This document shows positions 5,283-60,810 of a stretch of DNA of 64,000 nt, piece after piece; the first letter of the stretch is position 1; each line of letters begins with the position of its first letter. A program made the translations under genes and the position numbers. The stretch comes from a virus. The stretch lies in IMG/VR virus record IMGVR_UViG_3300036766_000548, positions 1 to 64,000 of that record. The stretch is one strand, 5' to 3'. The notes beneath the pieces are model-generated. The model saw nothing but the letters and a program-made list of their open reading frames with translations. It had not been told where the DNA came from and did not search any database.

Positions 5283-5813
5283 ATGAAAGTAACAAAAAAG
5301 TCAGATAAAAGCAACAAACAAACTTTAGATAATTCTATCAAAAAAGCTGTAGGAAGGCCAAAAGATTCCGGTATTAAATATAATCCTAAAATATATCCAG
5401 ATATTGTAAAATCATTATTGGCAAAGGGATATGTTGAATCTCAGATACAAGAAATAATACATATTTCAGTAGCAACATTTAATTCATGGAAAAAGAAATA
5501 TCCAGAATTTGTAAAAGCATTAAAAGAGGGCAAGCAAGGGCCGATTGATAGAACAGTAAATACATTAGAAAAAGTAGCAAATGGATTCAAGGAAACAGTA
5601 AAGAAAGCAATAGTAGTTTCCGATGGAGCACAGATAGGAAGTCATATTGAAATGGTTGATATTGAAGAATATATTCCACCGCAAGTATCAGCTATTCGTT
5701 ATTATCTAAATAATAGAGATAAGGATAATTGGTCTGATAAGCAGAATATTGAGATAAATGGCAAAATGGAATACAAAGTTATTCCAGATGACGAACTAGA
5801 GGAAAAGGAGTAA
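5283..5813 (+). CDS. terS: Terminase small subunit
   Basis: GRP motif, HTH (ISVATFNSWKKKYPEF), YYLNNR..W.DK; lies upstream of terL. Confidence 0.8.
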   Translation: MKVTKKSDKSNKQTLDNSIKKAVGRPKDSGIKYNPKIYPDIVKSLLAKGYVESQIQEIIHISVATFNSWKKKYPEFVKALKEGKQGPIDRTVNTLEKVANGFKETVKKAIVVSDGAQIGSHIEMVDIEEYIPPQVSAIRYYLNNRDKDNWSDKQNIEINGKMEYKVIPDDELEEKE

Positions 5814-5816
5814 ACT

Positions 5817-5969
5817 ATGGGTGGACCAGGATCAGGACGTAGAGCAGGTGGTGGTAAAGGTAAATTAAAGGTAAAAGGTAATCCTGGAAAAATGGATGTT
5901 ACTAGTAAAGCCGCTCAAAATTCAATGAAATCAGCAAGAAAATCTGCATTAAGGAAAAGAAGTAAATAA
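5817..5969 (+). CDS. MGGPGSGR-family basic mini-protein copy 1 (50 aa; missing from ORF track)
   Basis: AAGGAG-N6-ATG; MGGPGSGRRAGGGKGKLKVKGNPGKMDVTSKAAQNSMKSARKSALRKRSK. Confidence 0.8.
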   Translation: MGGPGSGRRAGGGKGKLKVKGNPGKMDVTSKAAQNSMKSARKSALRKRSK

Positions 5970-6176
5970 ATGGATTTATCAAAGTTAGAGCAACAAGTAT
6001 ATAAAACTCTTTTAGCTAGTGAAGCTAAGTATTCTAAACAAATACAAAAGACTTTACTTGATGCCTTAACTTCCATTTATGGTGAAATGACAAAGATATA
6101 TAAAAGATATGCAATTAATCAAGTAATGCAAGGAGTAAAACATGGGTGGACCAGGAAGTGGAAGAAAGAAAGGTAG
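5970..6176 (+). pseudogene. Truncated copy of head morphogenesis (gp7) N-terminus
   Basis: First 48 aa are 36/48 identical to the N-terminus of 10928..11926, then unrelated. Confidence 0.8.
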
Positions 6177-6333
6177 TGCTGGGAGTAAACATCCCGGTAA
6201 ATCAAATAATATCGTATTGATGCAAAGAAGCCAATTAAATCATGCAAAGAAAATGGGTAAGAATATTTTATATGAAAAGAATAAATTAACTAAAATAAAG
6301 AATACATATTTGAAAAGCAATAAAAGCAAATAG
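6142..6333 (+). CDS. MGGPGSGR-family basic mini-protein copy 2
   Basis: AAGGAG-N6-ATG; shared N-terminal tag; Lys-rich. Confidence 0.8.
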   Translation: MGGPGSGRKKGSAGSKHPGKSNNIVLMQRSQLNHAKKMGKNILYEKNKLTKIKNTYLKSNKSK

Positions 6334-6338
6334 TATAA

Positions 6339-8816
6339 ATGCCCGAACAAATTGAAATAGACTTAAAGGGATTCTCAAAAAAGATAAATCCCAAGTTCAT
6401 TCCATTGATAAAGGATCGCCATCCATTACAAATAGTAGTTGGTGGTGCCAATAGTTCTAAATGTTTTGCCAAAGGCATGCAAATTGTAATGTATTCAGGT
6501 GAATTGAAAAATGTAGAAGATATCGTTATTGGTGATTTGTTAATGGGAATTGATTCAACTCCTAGAAAGGTATTAAATACAAATAATGGTTATGGGAAAC
6601 TATATAAAGTATACCAACACCGAGGAGATGATTATACAGTTAATGAAAATCATATTTTATGTTTGAAGAAAAGTAAAAGTTGCAATAGATATAAAGAAGA
6701 TGGAGATTATATAGAAATATCTGTTTCTGATTATTTGAATAAAAGCACAAGATGGAAAAGAAATTTTTTAGGATATAGGACTGGAATTGATTTCTCAAAT
6801 AAGGAAGTTTCTATCGATCCTTATTATCTTGGTTTGTGGTTAGGAGATGGTGATAAAAATAGATTGTCTATTACGTCAATAGATGATGAAATAATAGAAT
6901 ATATATATGATTATGCCAAGAAAATAGGCGAGCGTGTTTCAATGATAAATAAATATGGCTATAATATCAATCATATTAAATATTCAAATGAAGTAAAGAA
7001 AGAGATTGCTAATATTTTTGCTAATGGTATTGTTGGCCATGGTTGGAAAAAAGGAACATTGAGATTAGTATGTGATAAAACTGGAATAAGTAATAGAGTA
7101 TGTTATCAATGGCTGAAAAATAAATCATTCATTAAATTGGTGGAATATTATAAGAAGCATCCAAAAGAAATTGATTATGATATAATTGAAAAAGAAAAAC
7201 AACAGGAAACACTTTACAGTAAGTTTGTTGAATATAATCTATTTTACAATAAGCATATTCCTAATGATTATTTATATAATTCATATGATATTCGATTAAA
7301 GTTATTGGCTGGAATTATTGATACTGATGGAAGTATGAAGGCTAATTGTTATACAGTAATTCAAAAGGATGAAAAATTATCATTCCAAATAAAGTATTTA
7401 GCTAATTCATTAGGATTCAAGTGTTCAATAACTAAAAGAAAATGTGAATGTGTTAATAATGGAGTGATAGGCGATTACTATTCAATGTGTATTTCTGGTA
7501 ATACTGAAAAAATACCTTGTAGGATAAAAAGAAAGATAGTAAAAAATCAAAGTGATAGAAAAGATCATTCGGTAATAGGAATTGATATTATTCAAATGGA
7601 AGATGGCGAATATTATGGATTTACTGTAGATAAGGATAATAAAGTTTTACTATCTGATTTTACAATAACACACAATTCATATAGCTATGCAGAAAAGATT
7701 ATTTATCATACAATACGGGAAAAGTATTTCCGGTGTTTGGCTACACGAAAAGTAAAAAAGGATGTAAAGCATTCTGTCTACGATCAATTGCGCGAAGTAT
7801 TGAATAGGTATAAATTAGAAAACTATTTCACTTACAATAATACTGAAAGTAATATTGTTTGCAAGTTGAATGGAAATGATATATTAGGCGTAGGTCTTGA
7901 TGATGTAAACAAATTAAAATCATTCACCAATCCTACATTCTTTTGGGCAGAAGAAGCTGATCAAATGACTCCAGATGATATTGAGCAATTAAGTCTACGA
8001 TTGCGTGGCCCTGACTATTGTTTCTTTCAAGGTGGATTGACATTAAATCCAATCAACGCCCAGCATTGGATCAAGTTAAAATATTTTGATCATAAGAATG
8101 ATGGGTGGATAACACATCATTCTACATATAAGGATAATCAATTCCTTTCGCCTAAAATTATTCAAAGAATGGAAGCGATAACTGATCCATATTATATAAA
8201 AGTATATGTGAATGGAGAATGGGGAATATTTACAAATGGTGTATTCTCAAATTATATAATAGAGGATTTTGATTATACAGAAAACGATTTAGAAGATGTT
8301 TGTTATGGAATGGACTTTGGATTTACCCATGCCCAGGCGATTGAGTGCGCTGGATTCAAGGATGGCGAATTATATGTATTTGACGAGTTGTGGGAAAAGG
8401 GGAAAACAAACAATCAATTCATGGATGATGCGAAAGACTATTTCGGTGATAAATTATATGATATGAGGATGACATGTGATTCCGCCGATCCTGACAAGAT
8501 AATAGAATGGGATAGAAGTGGATTTAGAGTAGAATCCGCGAAAAAGGGCCCAGGATCAGTGCGGTTTGGCATTGAATATTTGGTTGATAAAAAGATACAT
8601 ATACATGAAAGCAAGTGTGCCAATATCGCAAAAGAGATTCAACAGTTCAGGCGCAAAGAAGACAAGAATGGAAATGTTACTGAGGATTTTATAGAAGTGA
8701 ATGATGATGGAATAGCGGCATTGCGATATGGTACTGAATATATTTGGTCAAATACAAATCAAGTTTTTTATGATGGCACTAATGATAAATGGTCATTAAG
8801 CGAATTGGGATTATAA
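6339..8816 (+). CDS. terL: Terminase large subunit (PBSX/SPP1-type), intein-containing
   Basis: Walker A GGANSSK/S, GLDDVNKLKS, Walker B WAEEA, LTLNP, GMDFG, nuclease DDGIAALRY. Confidence 0.95.
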   Translation: MPEQIEIDLKGFSKKINPKFIPLIKDRHPLQIVVGGANSSKCFAKGMQIVMYSGELKNVEDIVIGDLLMGIDSTPRKVLNTNNGYGKLYKVYQHRGDDYTVNENHILCLKKSKSCNRYKEDGDYIEISVSDYLNKSTRWKRNFLGYRTGIDFSNKEVSIDPYYLGLWLGDGDKNRLSITSIDDEIIEYIYDYAKKIGERVSMINKYGYNINHIKYSNEVKKEIANIFANGIVGHGWKKGTLRLVCDKTGISNRVCYQWLKNKSFIKLVEYYKKHPKEIDYDIIEKEKQQETLYSKFVEYNLFYNKHIPNDYLYNSYDIRLKLLAGIIDTDGSMKANCYTVIQKDEKLSFQIKYLANSLGFKCSITKRKCECVNNGVIGDYYSMCISGNTEKIPCRIKRKIVKNQSDRKDHSVIGIDIIQMEDGEYYGFTVDKDNKVLLSDFTITHNSYSYAEKIIYHTIREKYFRCLATRKVKKDVKHSVYDQLREVLNRYKLENYFTYNNTESNIVCKLNGNDILGVGLDDVNKLKSFTNPTFFWAEEADQMTPDDIEQLSLRLRGPDYCFFQGGLTLNPINAQHWIKLKYFDHKNDGWITHHSTYKDNQFLSPKIIQRMEAITDPYYIKVYVNGEWGIFTNGVFSNYIIEDFDYTENDLEDVCYGMDFGFTHAQAIECAGFKDGELYVFDELWEKGKTNNQFMDDAKDYFGDKLYDMRMTCDSADPDKIIEWDRSGFRVESAKKGPGSVRFGIEYLVDKKIHIHESKCANIAKEIQQFRRKEDKNGNVTEDFIEVNDDGIAALRYGTEYIWSNTNQVFYDGTNDKWSLSELGL
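6462..7676 (+). mobile_element. Intein (405 aa) with LAGLIDADG homing endonuclease, inserted in TerL Walker A
   Basis: Begins CFAKG, block B TVNENHIL, YYLGLWLGDG and LLAGIIDTDG, ends THN followed by Ser. Confidence 0.95.
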
Positions 8817-50633: not shown

Positions 50634-52088
50634 TTATTGCAAATTTTTTAGCAATATTTCGTCAAAACTATAATTAAAAATTCCTTTAGATTCTTTGCCA
50701 TCGAGTATCATTGACATTGACCTAAAGCTTTCCTCTATTCTGTCTGCAACTATATTCTCAATAGTTCCATTGGCAAATGGGAAATATACATTAGCCCTTT
50801 CCGCTTTTTGTCCATATCGATCTATCCTGCTTAATACTTGTATAACCTGTCCTGGTGTATCTGGCATTTCTACTATTCCTATCCCTTCGCTTGCCGTTAA
50901 TGTTAAACCCTCCCCACCCGCTTCTGTTTGGATAAAAATCAATTTAACCTTTTTATCTTTTTGAAAACTATCTTCGGCCTTCTGCCTATTTATTCCAGAA
51001 ATACTTCCATCTATTTTAACTGCTACATTTTTATATTTAGTGTATAAATCATCCATGACGTTTTTATGCCAAACAGAAATAACCAGTTTATCGTGATCTT
51101 CTAAATATTCGTCTATCCATACAAATAATGCTTTTTGCTTTGCTAAATATGCTAATCGTTTTAATTCACTTAACGTATTCTTTCTATCTTTCTTGTTCAG
51201 TATCTTATTAAAATCATTGCTTAGATTATTGTAATTCTTAGCTTCTAATTTTGTCAATTCCAATGGGATAACAGTAAATATTGGTTCTTTTCTTGTTTTC
51301 TTTCTTCGTATCATTATCTTTTTTAATTTTTCATTTAATTCTTTTTCGTTACTCGATCCGTTAAATTCCCATCCGCCTTTATATCCGATGGTAGGCTCGC
51401 AATAATGCCAATAATAAGAATATTCTTTAGGGAATAATTTAGGCGCTGTTAAATGCAATATGGTCCAAAAATTACGTGGACGCTTCCTGATTGGTGTTCC
51501 TGATAATGGAATGAACACCTTGGGCTTTAATTTATTTACTAATTCGACAAAACACATTGTCCAAATAGCTTTTGGATTCCCAAGTCTATGCGCTTCATCC
51601 GGTATTACACCGATTATATTTAATTTAGTTAATTCTTTCCACCACCCTTCTAACCTGACTATGCCCTTTTTATATCTATGCTTTTTATATTTTGTTCCAT
51701 TCAATTCACATTCTTGCTTTATCAATAATTCTTCTTTATCAAATTTCAATTTTCGTTTATCTTCTAATTTTCTGTCTTTAGCGTTTTCCTTTCCTAATAT
51801 ATGATAATTGATAATATAGTAACAATAATTTTTAGATAAACTGAATTGCTTTTCGCCATTGATTATATATGAATCTTTTCCCGTCCACTTTTCTATTTCT
51901 CGTGCCCATTTGAGTTTCATTGATTTGGTGCAGACAATTAAATATTTCCCTGGATAGCTGATATCGCTTATACCGATAGCTTCTATTGTTTTGCCAAGGC
52001 CACACTCATCCCCAATAATAGCATAGCCATTATGTTCCTCGACAAATTTAATACATTCTTTTTGATACGGAAGATACTTAAGCTTCAA
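50634..52088 (-). CDS. SNF2/HARP-like helicase
   Basis: DECGLGKT, DEAH, LSGTP, GEGLTLT, Q...RIDR.GQ. Confidence 0.9.
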   Translation of the reverse strand: MKLKYLPYQKECIKFVEEHNGYAIIGDECGLGKTIEAIGISDISYPGKYLIVCTKSMKLKWAREIEKWTGKDSYIINGEKQFSLSKNYCYYIINYHILGKENAKDRKLEDKRKLKFDKEELLIKQECELNGTKYKKHRYKKGIVRLEGWWKELTKLNIIGVIPDEAHRLGNPKAIWTMCFVELVNKLKPKVFIPLSGTPIRKRPRNFWTILHLTAPKLFPKEYSYYWHYCEPTIGYKGGWEFNGSSNEKELNEKLKKIMIRRKKTRKEPIFTVIPLELTKLEAKNYNNLSNDFNKILNKKDRKNTLSELKRLAYLAKQKALFVWIDEYLEDHDKLVISVWHKNVMDDLYTKYKNVAVKIDGSISGINRQKAEDSFQKDKKVKLIFIQTEAGGEGLTLTASEGIGIVEMPDTPGQVIQVLSRIDRYGQKAERANVYFPFANGTIENIVADRIEESFRSMSMILDGKESKGIFNYSFDEILLKNLQ

Positions 52089-52144
52089 TTATTTTCCTTT
52101 AATAATAGGCTGTTTTTTATTTTTCCAACCCATTATATTATCCT

Positions 52145-52267
52145 TTAATTCTCACAGATAATAGCGAGTTGACCACAAGCAGCACCGGCGTTAATTTCGG
52201 CTTGTGTCGCGATTGCAATGGCATAATCATAACCAGACTTCTGTAATTCTTCCTTAATGCGTTCCAT
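52145..52267 (-). CDS. 40-aa peptide equivalent to the RlmN/Cfr C-terminal catalytic-Cys segment (missing from ORF track)
   Basis: GGAG RBS; MERIKEELQKSGYDYAIAIATQAEINAGAACGQLAIICEN. Confidence 0.8.
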   Translation of the reverse strand: MERIKEELQKSGYDYAIAIATQAEINAGAACGQLAIICEN

Positions 52268-53078
52268 ATATTTCTCCTTCTACTAAAATAGGATCGTCGA
52301 TAAATCCGTTCCTCAAAGAATGAATATCAAGTACTAAATTACCCGCAATGCATTTCATTTGATTATTTACTTCACGTTGATATATTTTTGGATATGGATA
52401 TTTGTTGTATATAAAATTAGCACATGAACAACCGTCCCTTTCCATTGATATTGTTTTTCTATAACCAATTAAATCATTTATTGCGACATAATGATTGACA
52501 CTATAATCGTTTACTTTCATAAGACCCACAAATCCAAAATCCAATACTCCTTTATTTGAATAATATTCTATATATTCATTTATTTTTTCGTTTGAATCAA
52601 CAAGTCCTTTTTGTAGAACGCATGATAAATGCAATTTATCATTCCCATAAATATCAATCATTGAATCAATCTCGAAATCGTTTATTGAATGCCTACTTAA
52701 TGAAATACTATTCACTAATTCATTATTCAACTCGATGCCCTTTCTAGTGTTTATAATTATAAACATTTCAGGGAAAAATGACCGTATCAATTTACATGCC
52801 TGTTCTACCTCATTAGTAAAATATCCTGGCTCACCTCCAGTAAAAGAAACCCTGTTTATATTGATATTTTTGTCTTTTATGCTAGTCAAAATATAAGACA
52901 AAAGGTCCAAAGAAAATACATCCTTTTTATCTGAACTATATACACAAAATGGACACCCCATATCACAATAATCAGATACGCGAATAAATAAATTAACATA
53001 AGGATCGCAATATTTTTGAGATAAACAATCAAAATTTTTTGTCTTTACAACATCTATCCAACTAGACATTTTTAGCAA
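52254..53078 (-). CDS. Radical SAM protein
   Basis: CDMGCPFC, FTGGEP. Confidence 0.85.
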   Translation of the reverse strand: MLKMSSWIDVVKTKNFDCLSQKYCDPYVNLFIRVSDYCDMGCPFCVYSSDKKDVFSLDLLSYILTSIKDKNININRVSFTGGEPGYFTNEVEQACKLIRSFFPEMFIIINTRKGIELNNELVNSISLSRHSINDFEIDSMIDIYGNDKLHLSCVLQKGLVDSNEKINEYIEYYSNKGVLDFGFVGLMKVNDYSVNHYVAINDLIGYRKTISMERDGCSCANFIYNKYPYPKIYQREVNNQMKCIAGNLVLDIHSLRNGFIDDPILVEGEIYGTH

Positions 53079-53362
53079 TGCCCACTACCACAACCACAAC
53101 CACCGCTACTACCGCCTCTATTTATATCACTAGAATTAATAATCTTTTTTTTACTCATGTTTTTAATAGGCTTGTCCTCACAATATTTATTATCGATAAA
53201 ATGAATTAGTAAATCAAAACACTCATTAGATATGGCGCCGTCAATATGGAGCTGATTTATTCTTTTATACACATTTATTATACCATTTGTTTTTATGCTC
53301 TCTTTTATACTCGGTAGCCAGAATTCCATTTCTTCGTTCAATTCTCTTTCATTTGATTGCAT
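53072..53362 (-). CDS. Small protein with Gly/Ser/Cys-rich C-terminal tail (start MQSN)
   Basis: AAGGAG RBS before ATG at 53362; ends RGGSSGGCGCGSGHC. Confidence 0.7.
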   Translation of the reverse strand: MQSNERELNEEMEFWLPSIKESIKTNGIINVYKRINQLHIDGAISNECFDLLIHFIDNKYCEDKPIKNMSKKKIINSSDINRGGSSGGCGCGSGHC

Positions 53363-53375
53363 TTTTAGTACTCCT

Positions 53376-54161
53376 TTATATGATATTAATGCCTTGAATG
53401 GCACCATTTCCCATATTGTTTTTCTCAGAAATCGTATTTTTATTTATTGGTGATAACTTGATAAAAAATCTATTCTTGTCAAAAAGTCTCTTTAATTCTT
53501 CTATATCAAAATCGCCTTCTTCAACCAATGTCATGTTAATAGTTGTTTTAAGATTGCTTTTGGTCCGTATATTGCTTAATTGTTCTAGTGTCATTTTATT
53601 TTTATATGGAATAAGCCAATTTCGTTTTTCATTTTTAAGAGAATGCACGGATATTTGAAGGGTTATGTTGTCCTTTATCCAAGAAAAATCAGAACCAATA
53701 ATGCCTATCGTAGAAATATAATGATGAGTTTTAGGATATTTTTCATCTATTTTAAATATAGCATCCTTTACATTATCTATATTTAGGAACGGTTCACCCA
53801 TTCTAGTATAATTTATCTTGTGTTCAAATGCTTCTTGAAAACGTTCAGTTCTTTTAGATAAAACAAATTCAACTTGTTCCACAATTTCTTGCGATGTAAG
53901 GTTCCTGTATTTTTTCATTGCACCCGTAGCACAAAATTTGCATCTAACTGGACATCCCGACATCGTAGAAACGCCAATCATCCAACGTTCTTTTCTACTC
54001 CCTATTTTTGTATCATGAAGTATATTTTGTTTTTGTCCAATAGCATCTTTAGTATATGAAGGCAAAAATGTATCGGTTACCTCAATAAGAAAATTATCTT
54101 CTGTTTTTAAGGCATATACAATTCCATTTGCGAATTCTTTATGCTTAATTTCTGTCAACAT
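53376..54161 (-). CDS. RlmN/Cfr-like radical SAM enzyme lacking the C-terminal CGQL
   Basis: VSTMSGCPVRCKFCATG, RNLT..EIVEQV, MGEP.LN, ISTIG, LQISVH. Confidence 0.85.
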   Translation of the reverse strand: MLTEIKHKEFANGIVYALKTEDNFLIEVTDTFLPSYTKDAIGQKQNILHDTKIGSRKERWMIGVSTMSGCPVRCKFCATGAMKKYRNLTSQEIVEQVEFVLSKRTERFQEAFEHKINYTRMGEPFLNIDNVKDAIFKIDEKYPKTHHYISTIGIIGSDFSWIKDNITLQISVHSLKNEKRNWLIPYKNKMTLEQLSNIRTKSNLKTTINMTLVEEGDFDIEELKRLFDKNRFFIKLSPINKNTISEKNNMGNGAIQGINII

Positions 54162-54251
54162 TTACCATCTCCTTATTCCATTTTCTACTATTCAATGTCG
54201 TAACCAAATCATCCACATCTCCAGTATAATATCTCCAATAATCCCGCTTGT

Positions 54252-55226
54252 CTATTTTGTTATATTCCCTTGACCAATATCCTTTGCCTTATTATTATGA
54301 TCTATACAAACATCCAAACAATTTTTTCTGCAAATAAGATCGTTATAAGTATTTGTTTTTTCAAACCATATTTTTCTTTCTTGTCTAATTTCTTTAATAG
54401 ATTTCCCATAAACATTCCCAATAGCTTCGCCTTGCTCGCGCATATAAATTACACAAGGAAAATGTTTTCCATGTAAAATAACCATATCATCTTTTACTAA
54501 ATGGCATTTATTGCAATCGGTTTCTTTCATGCCTCTAACATGCCTTCCATTATTTATATTATTGATCCTATATTTCAATATCTTATATTTTGTTTTTACG
54601 TTTATATTCAAATAATGATTTGATTGTGCTGTAGGAATAATTCTAATATCTGATACTTTTAATTTAGTTGCAAATTCAATAATATTTTTCAATTCATCAT
54701 TATTTTGTTTGTCCAATACCACCCCTACAGTTACATAAGTCAATTTAGATAATTCTTTTATAATCATCGCTATATGCTCAAAATGAGAATTGGTCCCTGC
54801 CATAATATCGGCAGTAGAAGAGCAACAGGCATCTAGCGAAATTGAAAAATCATTTATTCCGGCTTTGTGTAATTGCTTATAATATTCTAATTCTGCCGAT
54901 CCATTTGTAGAAATAGCAATATGTTTAATACATTTTTTGCTTTTAGTGTATTGAACCAATTCTAATAAATCTTTCCATATAGTAGGCTCACCACCTGAAA
55001 ATCTTATATTATGTAAATTAGCAGAAGTCCAGATATCTACAATTTCTTTTGCTTGCTCTAAAGTTAAATCCCCTTGAAGGTCTTTTACTATCCCTCGGCA
55101 ATAAGGACATTTGAAATTACAACGATTAGTCAATATCAATTCACACCGTTGTAAATCACTTTCCCAAGAAACGTTTTTTGCCCTTTTATCGGAAAGAGTA
55201 TAAAATCCAATATCTTCAAGTTTCAA
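54252..55226 (-). CDS. MoaA/PqqE-like radical SAM protein with Cys-rich C-terminal domain
   Basis: CNFKCPYC, FSGGEP, STNGS, SISLD; C-terminal CxxC..PC..CxxxCxxxC. Confidence 0.85.
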   Translation of the reverse strand: MKLEDIGFYTLSDKRAKNVSWESDLQRCELILTNRCNFKCPYCRGIVKDLQGDLTLEQAKEIVDIWTSANLHNIRFSGGEPTIWKDLLELVQYTKSKKCIKHIAISTNGSAELEYYKQLHKAGINDFSISLDACCSSTADIMAGTNSHFEHIAMIIKELSKLTYVTVGVVLDKQNNDELKNIIEFATKLKVSDIRIIPTAQSNHYLNINVKTKYKILKYRINNINNGRHVRGMKETDCNKCHLVKDDMVILHGKHFPCVIYMREQGEAIGNVYGKSIKEIRQERKIWFEKTNTYNDLICRKNCLDVCIDHNNKAKDIGQGNITK

Positions 55227-56097
55227 TATTTAACTCCTTTCTAACTATATTTTCCTCATCCTTTGTATAATCACCAGGATCATGTTCAAACTCAGGATTG
55301 AATATTTCCACTTCCACGCCTAATGCCGATAACTGCTCACCATATTTTCTCGCCCTATCCTGCGCCATTTTCTCATTGTCGAATAAAAATATAACTTTCT
55401 TGAATCGTTTGGAAAGTAGGTTTATTTGTTCCGGTGTAATTTCAATACCGAAAGAACAAGAAACATTATTGTGGCCTAATCTCCAACAATCGAATGGCCC
55501 TTCTACCAATATTATATAGTTATTCATACAATTATCTAGGTTATATAGTATTTTTTTATTGGAAATAATTGCTTTATCTGTTTTTAAATTTCTATATCTA
55601 ATTTCATTGTTTACAATTGTTCTCCCTAAGAATGTCACTAATTTATTTTGATAAAAAACTGGAATAATAATTCTAAAATTCCATTCTCCTATAATCCCTC
55701 CACCTTGTATTTTATATGTATCTACTAAATAATAAGGATCAAAATTCCTTTTAATCAAATATTTCCTTTCTTTTTCATTTAATATACTTCCAGGCAATTC
55801 AATATTATGTATTTTACCTTGTGTTTTATTCAATTTATTCAATACTATTTTATCAATAGTATTTTCATTTAATAATATATTAAGATCATTAAACGACAAA
55901 TTCAATAATTTTTGTAAAATATCCTTTGCATTTATTCCACCACATCGCCAACAATTATAATAAAATTCATTTAGATTAAATCCACCATGATATTTAGTAT
56001 CATTACAATTTGGACAGCAAACATTTATCCATCCATTATCACCTACTTGATATTTTATTCCATATTGTTTGAACATACTAGGAAGATCAATTTTCAT
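55216..56097 (-). CDS. DNA primase (zinc finger + TOPRIM)
   Basis: CPNC...H...CWRCG, RIIIP, GR, VEGPFD, FDNE. Confidence 0.85.
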   Translation of the reverse strand: MKIDLPSMFKQYGIKYQVGDNGWINVCCPNCNDTKYHGGFNLNEFYYNCWRCGGINAKDILQKLLNLSFNDLNILLNENTIDKIVLNKLNKTQGKIHNIELPGSILNEKERKYLIKRNFDPYYLVDTYKIQGGGIIGEWNFRIIIPVFYQNKLVTFLGRTIVNNEIRYRNLKTDKAIISNKKILYNLDNCMNNYIILVEGPFDCWRLGHNNVSCSFGIEITPEQINLLSKRFKKVIFLFDNEKMAQDRARKYGEQLSALGVEVEIFNPEFEHDPGDYTKDEENIVRKELNIET

Positions 56098-56860
56098 TGT
56101 TCTTCCTTTTTGCTGCTTCTTTTCGTTCTCTAGTTTTACGTTTTGTTTCTTTTAATTTGTTTATAGATTCTTGTGTCCATACTCTACCTACGCCTCTTAA
56201 TCCAATTATTCTTTTTTGTTCATCTGTTAAATGTTTATGTAATCTTAATTGCGCTTGTCTATTTTTTTCTATTTGTTCTGGAGTCTTTTTTCTGCCCTTT
56301 TGTGCATCGCTAATTTTCTTTTTAGTTTCCTCTGATACTGGATGACCTTTTATCCTTTGTGATAATTTCTTTTTGGCCTCTTCTGTATGATGTCTACCTA
56401 GATGAGCTAATCTGTTTTTTTCTTTTGCTTCTTTAGATGGTTTCCATCCTAAATTTCTTAATCTAGATTTTTCACAAAACTCTTTTGATCTTTTTTGTCC
56501 TTTATTAGCTATGCTTAATTTCTTTCTTGTAACTTCGTTGGGTATTCCTCCTGATCCACCGCCGTCCATAAGGTTATATCCATATTTGCTGTTTGTGCTT
56601 TTATATTCTTTAATCCAATATTTTTCTTTTCTATCTAATGTTCTTTTTGAGTAAGCAAAATCTATTGTAGCCCATTTGAAATTGTTTTTGCCATATTTTT
56701 TTAACGCCCTTTGAAAATAATAACCATCCCCTCTTTGAGCACTAGATAAATGCAATGATTTTCTTCTTCTTAATGTTCCAGTAGTTTGCCCAATATAAAC
56801 TTTATCATTCATGATGTTTCTAGCTCTGTAAATAATGCCATAAAGTTTCTTTTCTTTCAT
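56087..56860 (-). CDS. GIY-YIG homing endonuclease with NUMOD3 repeats
   Basis: IIY...N..N.KVYIGQT, ALKKYG..NF, GYN...GG, repeated SEE.K.KIS. Confidence 0.9.
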   Translation of the reverse strand: MKEKKLYGIIYRARNIMNDKVYIGQTTGTLRRRKSLHLSSAQRGDGYYFQRALKKYGKNNFKWATIDFAYSKRTLDRKEKYWIKEYKSTNSKYGYNLMDGGGSGGIPNEVTRKKLSIANKGQKRSKEFCEKSRLRNLGWKPSKEAKEKNRLAHLGRHHTEEAKKKLSQRIKGHPVSEETKKKISDAQKGRKKTPEQIEKNRQAQLRLHKHLTDEQKRIIGLRGVGRVWTQESINKLKETKRKTRERKEAAKRKNNEN

Positions 56861-60044: not shown

Positions 60045-60810
60045 TTATTTCTCCTTGCACAATCCTTCTTGGCTTCTTCCGTAGTCAATGCTATTTTCCG
60101 TTTCTTGTAGTCGTCTTTTTCAGAATAAAAAACAGGATAAGGACGCGGATCGTCATTGGACATATAATATCCAACAATCATCGGAGATTTTTCTTTTTTG
60201 ATCATTTTGTATTTGCACCATGAAGTTGCCATATAGCAATGGCAAAAGTAAGTTCAGTTTTGGAAATCTCGTCCCGATGAAATGCCTGGAAATAATACTT
60301 CAACTCTTCATAGCTCATAATAACTCCTATCAATTAAATCTATTAGCTCCAGTCAGATTTGAACTGACACTGAATGGATTTTAAGTCCATTGCCTACTGC
60401 CAATTGGGCTATGGAGCCATAAAAATCTATTTTTGCATCCGCCACATCTTATAATCATCTATGGTGTCAAAAAACATCCATCCGCCAGAGACTTTGATGA
60501 TCTTTGCCCAGTCATGACCGGCCCTCTGTAATGCCTCTTCCCTAGTATCAGCCTCGATGAACTTCATTTGGTCCTCCTATAAAAAGACTATTGGCAAGGC
60601 GAAGAGCATCAATGCTAGTCGGGGCTTCTTGGACGATTGTCCCGAGTCCATGCCACGCGGGCTGTTTGAAAAGAAAGCAAGTCTCTACATTAGCGCTCAT
60701 TAGTGACTCCTTTTGAATCCTTAATCTTCTTCGTGCAAAGCTTCAATGCCATGCAGCCCCGACAGCCGCGCAAATGCCTCCGTTCGCAATCAGTTTTGAT
60801 TTTCATTTAT

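Follow-up and report, generated by a model that had tools for sequence, protein, structure and literature searches.

A phage RlmN/Cfr-like radical SAM core with a putative C-terminal cysteine segment encoded on a separate 40-residue peptide

An RlmN/Cfr-like core and a detached cysteine peptide

We analyzed 64,000 nucleotides of viral DNA (positions 1 to 64,000 of IMG/VR record IMGVR_UViG_3300036766_000548; this whole stretch is called the window below), taken from a complete virus record of 78,011 bp with direct terminal repeats. A look at sequencing runs gave one DNA run, a sediment metagenome from which the record probably derives, and no RNA run. The subject is a gene, single-copy in the 78,011-bp record, for a radical S-adenosylmethionine (SAM) protein resembling the RNA methylases RlmN and Cfr, together with a 40-amino-acid (aa) open reading frame (ORF) carrying the cysteine motif that this protein lacks. 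The two genes and those between them are as follows.

54161..53376, minus strand: RlmN/Cfr-like radical SAM core, 261 aa, with stop codon TAA after ...GINII
53362..53072, minus strand: 96-aa small protein with a terminal Cys, between the core and peptide genes
53078..52254, minus strand: 274-aa radical SAM protein (rSAM274) with the motif CDMGCPFC, between the 96-aa gene and the peptide gene
52267..52145, minus strand: 40-aa peptide with GAACGQL (Cys31), predicted counterpart of the C-terminal helix, strand and Cys loop of RlmN

The earlier note on this DNA had described an RlmN/Cfr-like core that ends in GINII without CGQL, and a separate 40-aa ORF two genes away with a ribosome-binding site of its own; the ORF sequences confirmed the former, and the latter was borne out by an AAGGAG located 8 nt ahead of the ATG. 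The 40-aa ORF begins inside the gene before it, whose last 14 nt it shares.

The core contains ...WMIGVSTMSGCPVRCKFCATG... as well as TRMGEPFLN, with C70, C74 and C77 forming the CxxxCxxC cluster motif and no Cys beyond these three. It matched PF04055 (E 7.6e-12) and, over residues 55-228, positions 100-281 of 355 of the RlmN profile TIGR00048 (E 1.2e-21), with a score of 77 bits against a curated cut-off of 290, which places it outside the RlmN equivalog. RlmN is the C2-methyltransferase of 23S rRNA A2503 and tRNA A37 (TIGR00048; PDB 3RF9/3RFA, 4PL1, 5HR6/5HR7, 6FZ6), and Cfr is the C8-methyltransferase of 23S rRNA A2503 (TIGR04432; PDB 9P0P). Sequence matches of the core in the PDB were RlmN and Cfr chains only (RlmN 6fz6, E 1.4e-10), while alignment of the core family to a canonical RlmN alignment by hhalign gave a probability of 100 and an E of 3e-44 over columns 100-297. 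When the AlphaFold2 model of the core (predicted local distance difference test score, pLDDT, 82) was compared to the PDB with Foldseek, ranks 1-11 were all RlmN or Cfr, with TYW1, SkfB and PFL-AE below them. In sequence and fold, the core is thus of the type found in class A radical SAM methylases, and RlmN is its best sequence, profile and fold match; in PHROGs, its only match was phrog_24834, a family of unknown function.

Core and peptide each share features with RlmN, namely the motifs GC...C.FCATG, MGEP.LN and S.H in the core and a helix and strand ahead of the ACGQL Cys loop in the peptide. The phage system differs in two catalytic respects. In class A enzymes the methyl-carrying Cys is part of the enzyme chain itself, in a C-terminal ACGQL loop, whereas the phage core has no C-terminal CGQL segment and the motif is found on the 40-aa ORF instead. 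Secondly, the position of the resolving Cys (C118 in RlmN, C105 in Cfr), seven residues before the first cluster Cys, is occupied by G63, which aligned to residue 118 of E. coli RlmN C118A (4pl1). G63 was invariant in 13 family members with identities down to 35%, in which the three cluster ligands were the only invariant Cys residues. Cfr shares the class A architecture and differs from the phage system in the same ways as RlmN; nothing in the phage system points to C8 over C2 chemistry.

The 40-aa peptide contains ...INAGAACGQLAIICEN. It and the 96-aa protein found no match in Pfam, NCBIfam, PHROGs or PADLOC. When a profile of 30 peptides was aligned by hhalign to an RlmN-like profile of 18 canonical proteins, it fell on columns 305-349 of 364 (probability 93.3%, E 2.6e-7); because the core occupies columns 100-297, the two genes tile the catalytic domain without overlap. 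Stand-alone homologs formed 115 clusters of 36-65 aa, and the invariant residues are L8, G12, A18, A20, T21, E24, A30, C31, G32, Q33 and L34. A second Cys of the window peptide, Cys38, seven residues past Cys31, is present in just 54 of these clusters. The median ratio of nonsynonymous to synonymous substitution rates was 0.14 over 23 computable peptide pairs, a value that indicates purifying selection. Some Joint Genome Institute (JGI) records of 38-47 aa peptide proteins are automatically named RlmN. Altogether, sequence, profile and model comparisons show the peptide to be the detached equivalent of the RlmN C-terminal segment. The window pair fits the definition of a split family with core motifs ...MIGVS...GC...C.FC, TRMGEP and KLSPIN.N and a separately encoded peptide of 36-65 aa with the pattern G[YF]...A.A.AT..E....ACGQ[LMV].

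A search for the peptide in longer proteins gave a single match (P0268), in which the module follows an in-frame upstream region on a 1-kb contig; this is probably an over-long gene call.

Split and fused forms among relatives

We tallied 110 loci from IMG/VR and GTDB genome contigs with cores of at least 43% identity, and the peptide was an ORF of its own in 103. It was located within 100 nt downstream of the core in 33 of the 103, after an rSAM255-type gene and a class I SAM methyltransferase gene in 62, after an rSAM274-type gene in 3 and after other small genes in 1; the other 4 were classed as upstream of the core, although one of them (L122) is really adjacent, with a 4-nt overlap with the core end. 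As for the seven loci without a peptide, three are deletion variants, two run off the contig end, one has its peptide past the locus edge and one (L062) is unexplained. The deletions (L005, L047 and L055, around 5750-6270), found in close relatives belonging to the common gut lineage, removed the peptide and also clipped the last residues of the core or truncated the second radical SAM gene.

In adjacent core-peptide pairs the spacer was 2-28 nt long, all three relative reading frames were found, and several spacers contained further stop codons; joining of core and peptide by read-through or frameshifting was rejected on the grounds of these frames and stops. In one locus with an adjacent pair (L072), the peptide gene is followed, after about 240 nt that include one short possible ORF, by a thioredoxin gene (6173-6538; PF00085, E 5.5e-25).

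The family includes cultured phages and is for this reason directly testable. Kehishuvirus tikkala, a Bacteroides phage, encodes a 43-aa peptide 2 nt after the core, and Moorella phage MTATph1 a 40-aa peptide 15 nt after it; one gene separates core from peptide in Pectobacterium phages Arno18, Arno162 and Wc4 and in Yersinia phage P778, and the Yersinia and Pectobacterium peptides have long C-terminal extensions. Vibrio phage D479 also carries the pair, and here a single ORF (L065:4303-4584) consists of two tandem peptide modules whose DNA copies match at 81%, with 15 synonymous and 2 nonsynonymous codon differences, so that the encoded proteins are nearly identical. The split system was also present in isolate genomes of Bacteroidales (Bacteroides, Segatella, Lepagella and Muribaculaceae), on large contigs that include a 1.85-Mb contig of Bacteroides congonensis (L111) and L093, L095 and L096, which suggests integrated or co-cultured phages.

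These layouts bear on the reading that the split is an accident, in which a two-gene cassette interrupted a gene that had been complete and left the 40-aa ORF behind as a dead remnant. Two genes do separate the pieces in the window, and a few relatives carry deletions in the region; against this, 33 loci are split with no insert at all and other loci carry different inserts, the peptide ORF opens with a start codon of its own and evolves under purifying selection, the stand-alone homologs of the peptide make up 115 clusters, and no family member has a C-terminal fusion. This reading, scarcely credible in our estimate, is already contradicted.

Fused forms were sought in a full HMMER scan of 1.84 billion representatives. 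Two natural fusions were recovered, with the peptide module followed by the core (P0123) or by the core and a second radical SAM domain (P0142); a viral scan with P0142 as the query gave no matches. In the 1.84-billion scan, none of the 26 representatives of Gly-118 family members had a C-terminal CGQ.

Short RlmN-like proteins of Salmonella phage Arash (gp133), Stenotrophomonas phage BUCTxx99, Vibrio phage PS17B-2 and Aeromonas phage Ahp1 are likewise phage-encoded, of similar size and without the N-terminal domain of RlmN. Unlike the split system, they are single chains of 308-319 aa ending in a C-terminal GGGCGQLW, keep a Cys at the C118 position (VMCVS, VICCS, VMCIS) and fall in the C118-bearing half of the tree. 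The BUCTxx99 gene (L068) stands inside a phage tRNA array, and its record mis-annotates it as a prohibitin family protein. Two further groups are devoid of C118: a fused group with ...SNCGQ... (P0179, P0185, P0232 and 9 more) and a group with ...KIGVS...C.YCFT (P0173, P0181, P0220 and 12 more) that ends in ...GF.YA.R and has no CGQ. Neither has its own NCBIfam model, and both cluster with the split family on a weak tree backbone (support 73). The absence of C118 does not go strictly with the split, since it is shared by the fused ...SNCGQ... relatives.

One core (P0119) contains an intein (Hint and LAGLIDADG domains in Pfam) exactly at the third Cys of CxxxCxxC, where its sequence reads CLLPE. 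Three others (P0156, P0176 and P0186) have CF/LVPG directly after this Cys, and by their likeness to P0119 they probably carry an intein as well.

A predicted two-chain enzyme and the fate of its adduct

The core and the peptide were co-folded in three runs, with a core alignment and a peptide alignment, alongside three controls. The interaction prediction score from aligned errors (ipSAE) was 0.74, 0.72 and 0.74, and the best of the three controls reached 0.01; the runs agreed in at least 67% of contacts, and the pLDDT of the partner was at least 63. In calibration, 58 of 80 solved complexes reached the mark for this test, as did 2 of 110 mismatched pairs; with own alignments as input, these counts apply here only approximately. 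Peptide residues 13-17 paired with core residues 232-236, the last core strand, and the peptide helix packed against the N-terminal sheet and core residues 220-229, in the topology expected from RlmN. As the folding model may remember single-chain RlmN structures, this pass may come partly from such memory and shows likeness rather than binding.

Altogether, these data make it probable, with good but not full confidence on our part, that the core and the 40-aa peptide constitute a two-chain, class-A-like radical SAM enzyme. The earlier note had proposed a two-polypeptide enzyme of this kind, and its proposal gains support from the hhalign and co-fold results, the conserved co-occurrence of the two genes and the natural fusions. 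The Gly that it read in place of the resolving Cys proved invariant across the family, and the peptide aligns at the C-terminal position of RlmN. The refuting condition named in the note, that every homolog be fused and the split be a decaying one-off, clearly fails, with 103 of 110 loci keeping a separate peptide. More speculative are the ideas in the note of a diffusible methyl carrier and of a peptide-target crosslink on RNA or protein. A partial parallel is GrcA (YfiD), a separately encoded small protein that stands in, as a spare part in trans, for the C-terminal glycyl-radical domain of pyruvate formate-lyase; as is predicted for the phage system, the catalytic C-terminal segment of a radical enzyme comes from a small protein of its own. 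GrcA differs in its glycyl radical chemistry, and it rescues a damaged full-length enzyme, whereas the phage core never has the segment.

Several observations weigh against a two-chain enzyme of RlmN type. No RlmN or Cfr match was found among PDB sequences at E up to 10, either by phmmer with the single peptide or by hmmsearch with the peptide profile; since HMMER misses RlmN, homology of the peptide rests on hhalign, the identity of the motif and the automatic names of some JGI records. Residues 1-33 of the core model are beta strands, and the N-terminal helical domain of RlmN is therefore absent, as it is from the phage family at large. In the co-fold, no contact of the ACGQ tip is placed with confidence. 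Deletion of the peptide in three close relatives shows the system to be dispensable. Finally, the tandem modules of phage D479 and the extensions of the Yersinia and Pectobacterium peptides fit a consumable or substrate role better than that of a fixed subunit.

Such a substrate role would be filled if the peptide were a ribosomal substrate akin to ribosomally synthesized and post-translationally modified peptides (RiPPs), matured by the core and the neighboring radical SAM and methyltransferase enzymes with no nucleic-acid target. The peptide is indeed a small stand-alone ORF with as many as three radical SAM enzyme genes and a methyltransferase gene beside it, its two-module form in phage D479 recalls multi-core precursors, the tails past its motif vary, and the same operon holds a clearly precursor-like small protein with a radical SAM enzyme of its own. 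Conservation, however, spans the entire peptide rather than a core region only and matches the RlmN C-terminal segment; natural peptide-enzyme fusions exist; minimal two-gene systems occur with no protease, transporter or other tailoring gene nearby; and the co-fold sets the peptide as a structural strand of the barrel. We regard a RiPP-like role as quite unlikely.

In RlmN and Cfr, C355 and C338, respectively, are methylated by SAM, after which a 5'-deoxyadenosyl radical takes a hydrogen from the methyl group and the resulting methylene radical adds to adenine C2 or C8; both enzymes use the same two-Cys chemistry, with C118 of RlmN and C105 of Cfr indispensable for resolving the protein-RNA crosslink, which C118 mutants of RlmN trap (PMC9692996). 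For the proposed two-chain enzyme, the model would have the peptide helix and beta-strand (residues ~3-21) pack alongside FFIKLSP (residues 232-237), the final strand of the core, which would put the flexible GAACGQL loop where RlmN has C355. Cys31 may then accept a methyl group from SAM, and a 5'-deoxyadenosyl radical generated at the 4Fe-4S cluster of the core would turn this methyl into a Cys-S-CH2 radical, which would add to an sp2 carbon of the substrate, most likely a purine, either of a nucleic acid or of a nucleotide. Since the core has Gly where RlmN has C118 and lacks a spare Cys, release of the adduct as in RlmN and Cfr cannot run. The base may be another residue; alternatively, the peptide may remain attached, or the adduct may be cut by other enzymes.

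The second and third of these fates would make the peptide a stoichiometric methylene donor that is consumed like a cartridge, either left bound to the target through a thioether or freed from it by accessory enzymes. The invariant Gly at the C118 position with no other conserved Cys, and the crosslinks trapped by RlmN C118 mutants (PMC9692996), are consistent with consumption of the peptide, as are its detachability, the selected tandem pair kept by one phage, the accessory radical SAM and methyltransferase genes nested in the operon, and the thioredoxin gene beside the peptide gene in L072. The idea is pure inference, however, and spending a peptide on every modification would be costly; C118 is missing from fused relatives too, so another residue may serve as the base, and the accessory module is found without the core as well (L083, below). 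We put consumption of the peptide forward tentatively, as a possibility on the unlikely side.

Two cysteines on a single chain are the defining feature of class A radical SAM methylases. Because a large and widespread phage family has put one cysteine on a free peptide and dropped the other, the reaction of the putative two-chain enzyme must end differently from that of RlmN and Cfr. The family could bring to light a novel way of completing methylene-radical chemistry, or of deliberately leaving it incomplete, and with it a new phage modification of RNA, DNA or nucleotides. A literature search found no paper on a split or phage RlmN-like system.

Accessory genes, genomic setting and candidate targets

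Of the two genes between core and peptide in the window, rSAM274 has a MoaA/viperin-like fold along with its CDMGCPFC motif. The 96-aa protein, for which the ORF list holds an alternative 111-aa form starting at 53407, has a helical N-terminal part and a Gly/Ser/Cys tail that ends in GGCGCGSGHC directly before the stop. An alignment search for rSAM274-type proteins gave 12 viral loci (L075-L086), ten of which have the order core, small protein, rSAM274-type gene and peptide. In the other two, the small protein and rSAM274-type genes occur with no core within 6 kb; one of these (L083) is a 95%-complete 213-kb phage record with no core anywhere. Recurring with and without the core, the two genes form a separable module that prefers a place inside the split RlmN operon.

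In 11 of the 12 loci, the rSAM274-type gene is directly preceded by an ORF for a protein of 77-211 aa with a helical N-terminal part and a Ser/Gly/Cys/Arg-rich tail ending in Cys. When 12 such small proteins were aligned, the invariant columns were the start Met and the terminal Cys only, with one member carrying an extra residue after the Cys; the ends include ...SGHC, ...NGRC, ...SISRC and ...GRSPC. By this gene arrangement and alignment, rSAM274 is the predicted partner of the terminal-Cys small protein, and the two would be another undescribed case, next to core and peptide, of a radical SAM enzyme paired with a small Cys-bearing protein. BLASTP detected no similarity between rSAM274 of the window and the rSAM255-type proteins of other loci, which are therefore different accessory enzymes. 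The terminal-Cys protein and rSAM274 probably serve a second step, or a parallel branch, of the pathway of the putative two-chain enzyme.

The genes around the four listed above are as follows.

55226..54252, minus strand: 324-aa MoaA/SPASM-like radical SAM protein, directly upstream of the core and possibly of the same cluster
56097..55216, minus strand: primase-like gene, one flank of the five-ORF run
52088..50634, minus strand: SNF2-type helicase gene, the other flank of the five-ORF run

The five minus-strand ORFs from 55226 to 52145 are thus consecutive between the primase-like and helicase genes. A promoter/terminator scan of 51900-56300 found no terminator-like sites, and promoter-like sites were no commoner there than at chance level. 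A 50%-identical homolog of the 324-aa protein adjoins the rSAM274-type gene of the core-less record (L083:7429-8400).

As for the putative target, weak hints point to nucleic acids or nucleotides. The split genes lie amid replication and DNA-metabolism genes in the window, the Moorella phage and Kehishuvirus, a weak hint of a nucleic-acid target, and the resemblance of the accessory radical SAM proteins to the nucleotide-acting MoaA, viperin and QueE is another weak hint, toward nucleic acids or nucleotides. A third weak hint is the spread of the family over phages whose hosts differ widely, which speaks for a universal target. A more elaborate proposal joins peptide and accessory genes in one pathway: the peptide would act as a single-use methylene donor, welded via Cys-S-CH2 either to a nucleotide or to a purine in the nucleic acid of host or phage, and the accessory radical SAM enzymes, the terminal-Cys protein and the methyltransferase would then turn the adduct into a new hypermodified base. 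We judge this proposal unlikely; if true, such a peptide-primed nucleic-acid modification pathway would be without known precedent.

Elsewhere in the window, the sole tRNA gene is a minus-strand tRNA-Leu with anticodon TAA at 60343-60419.

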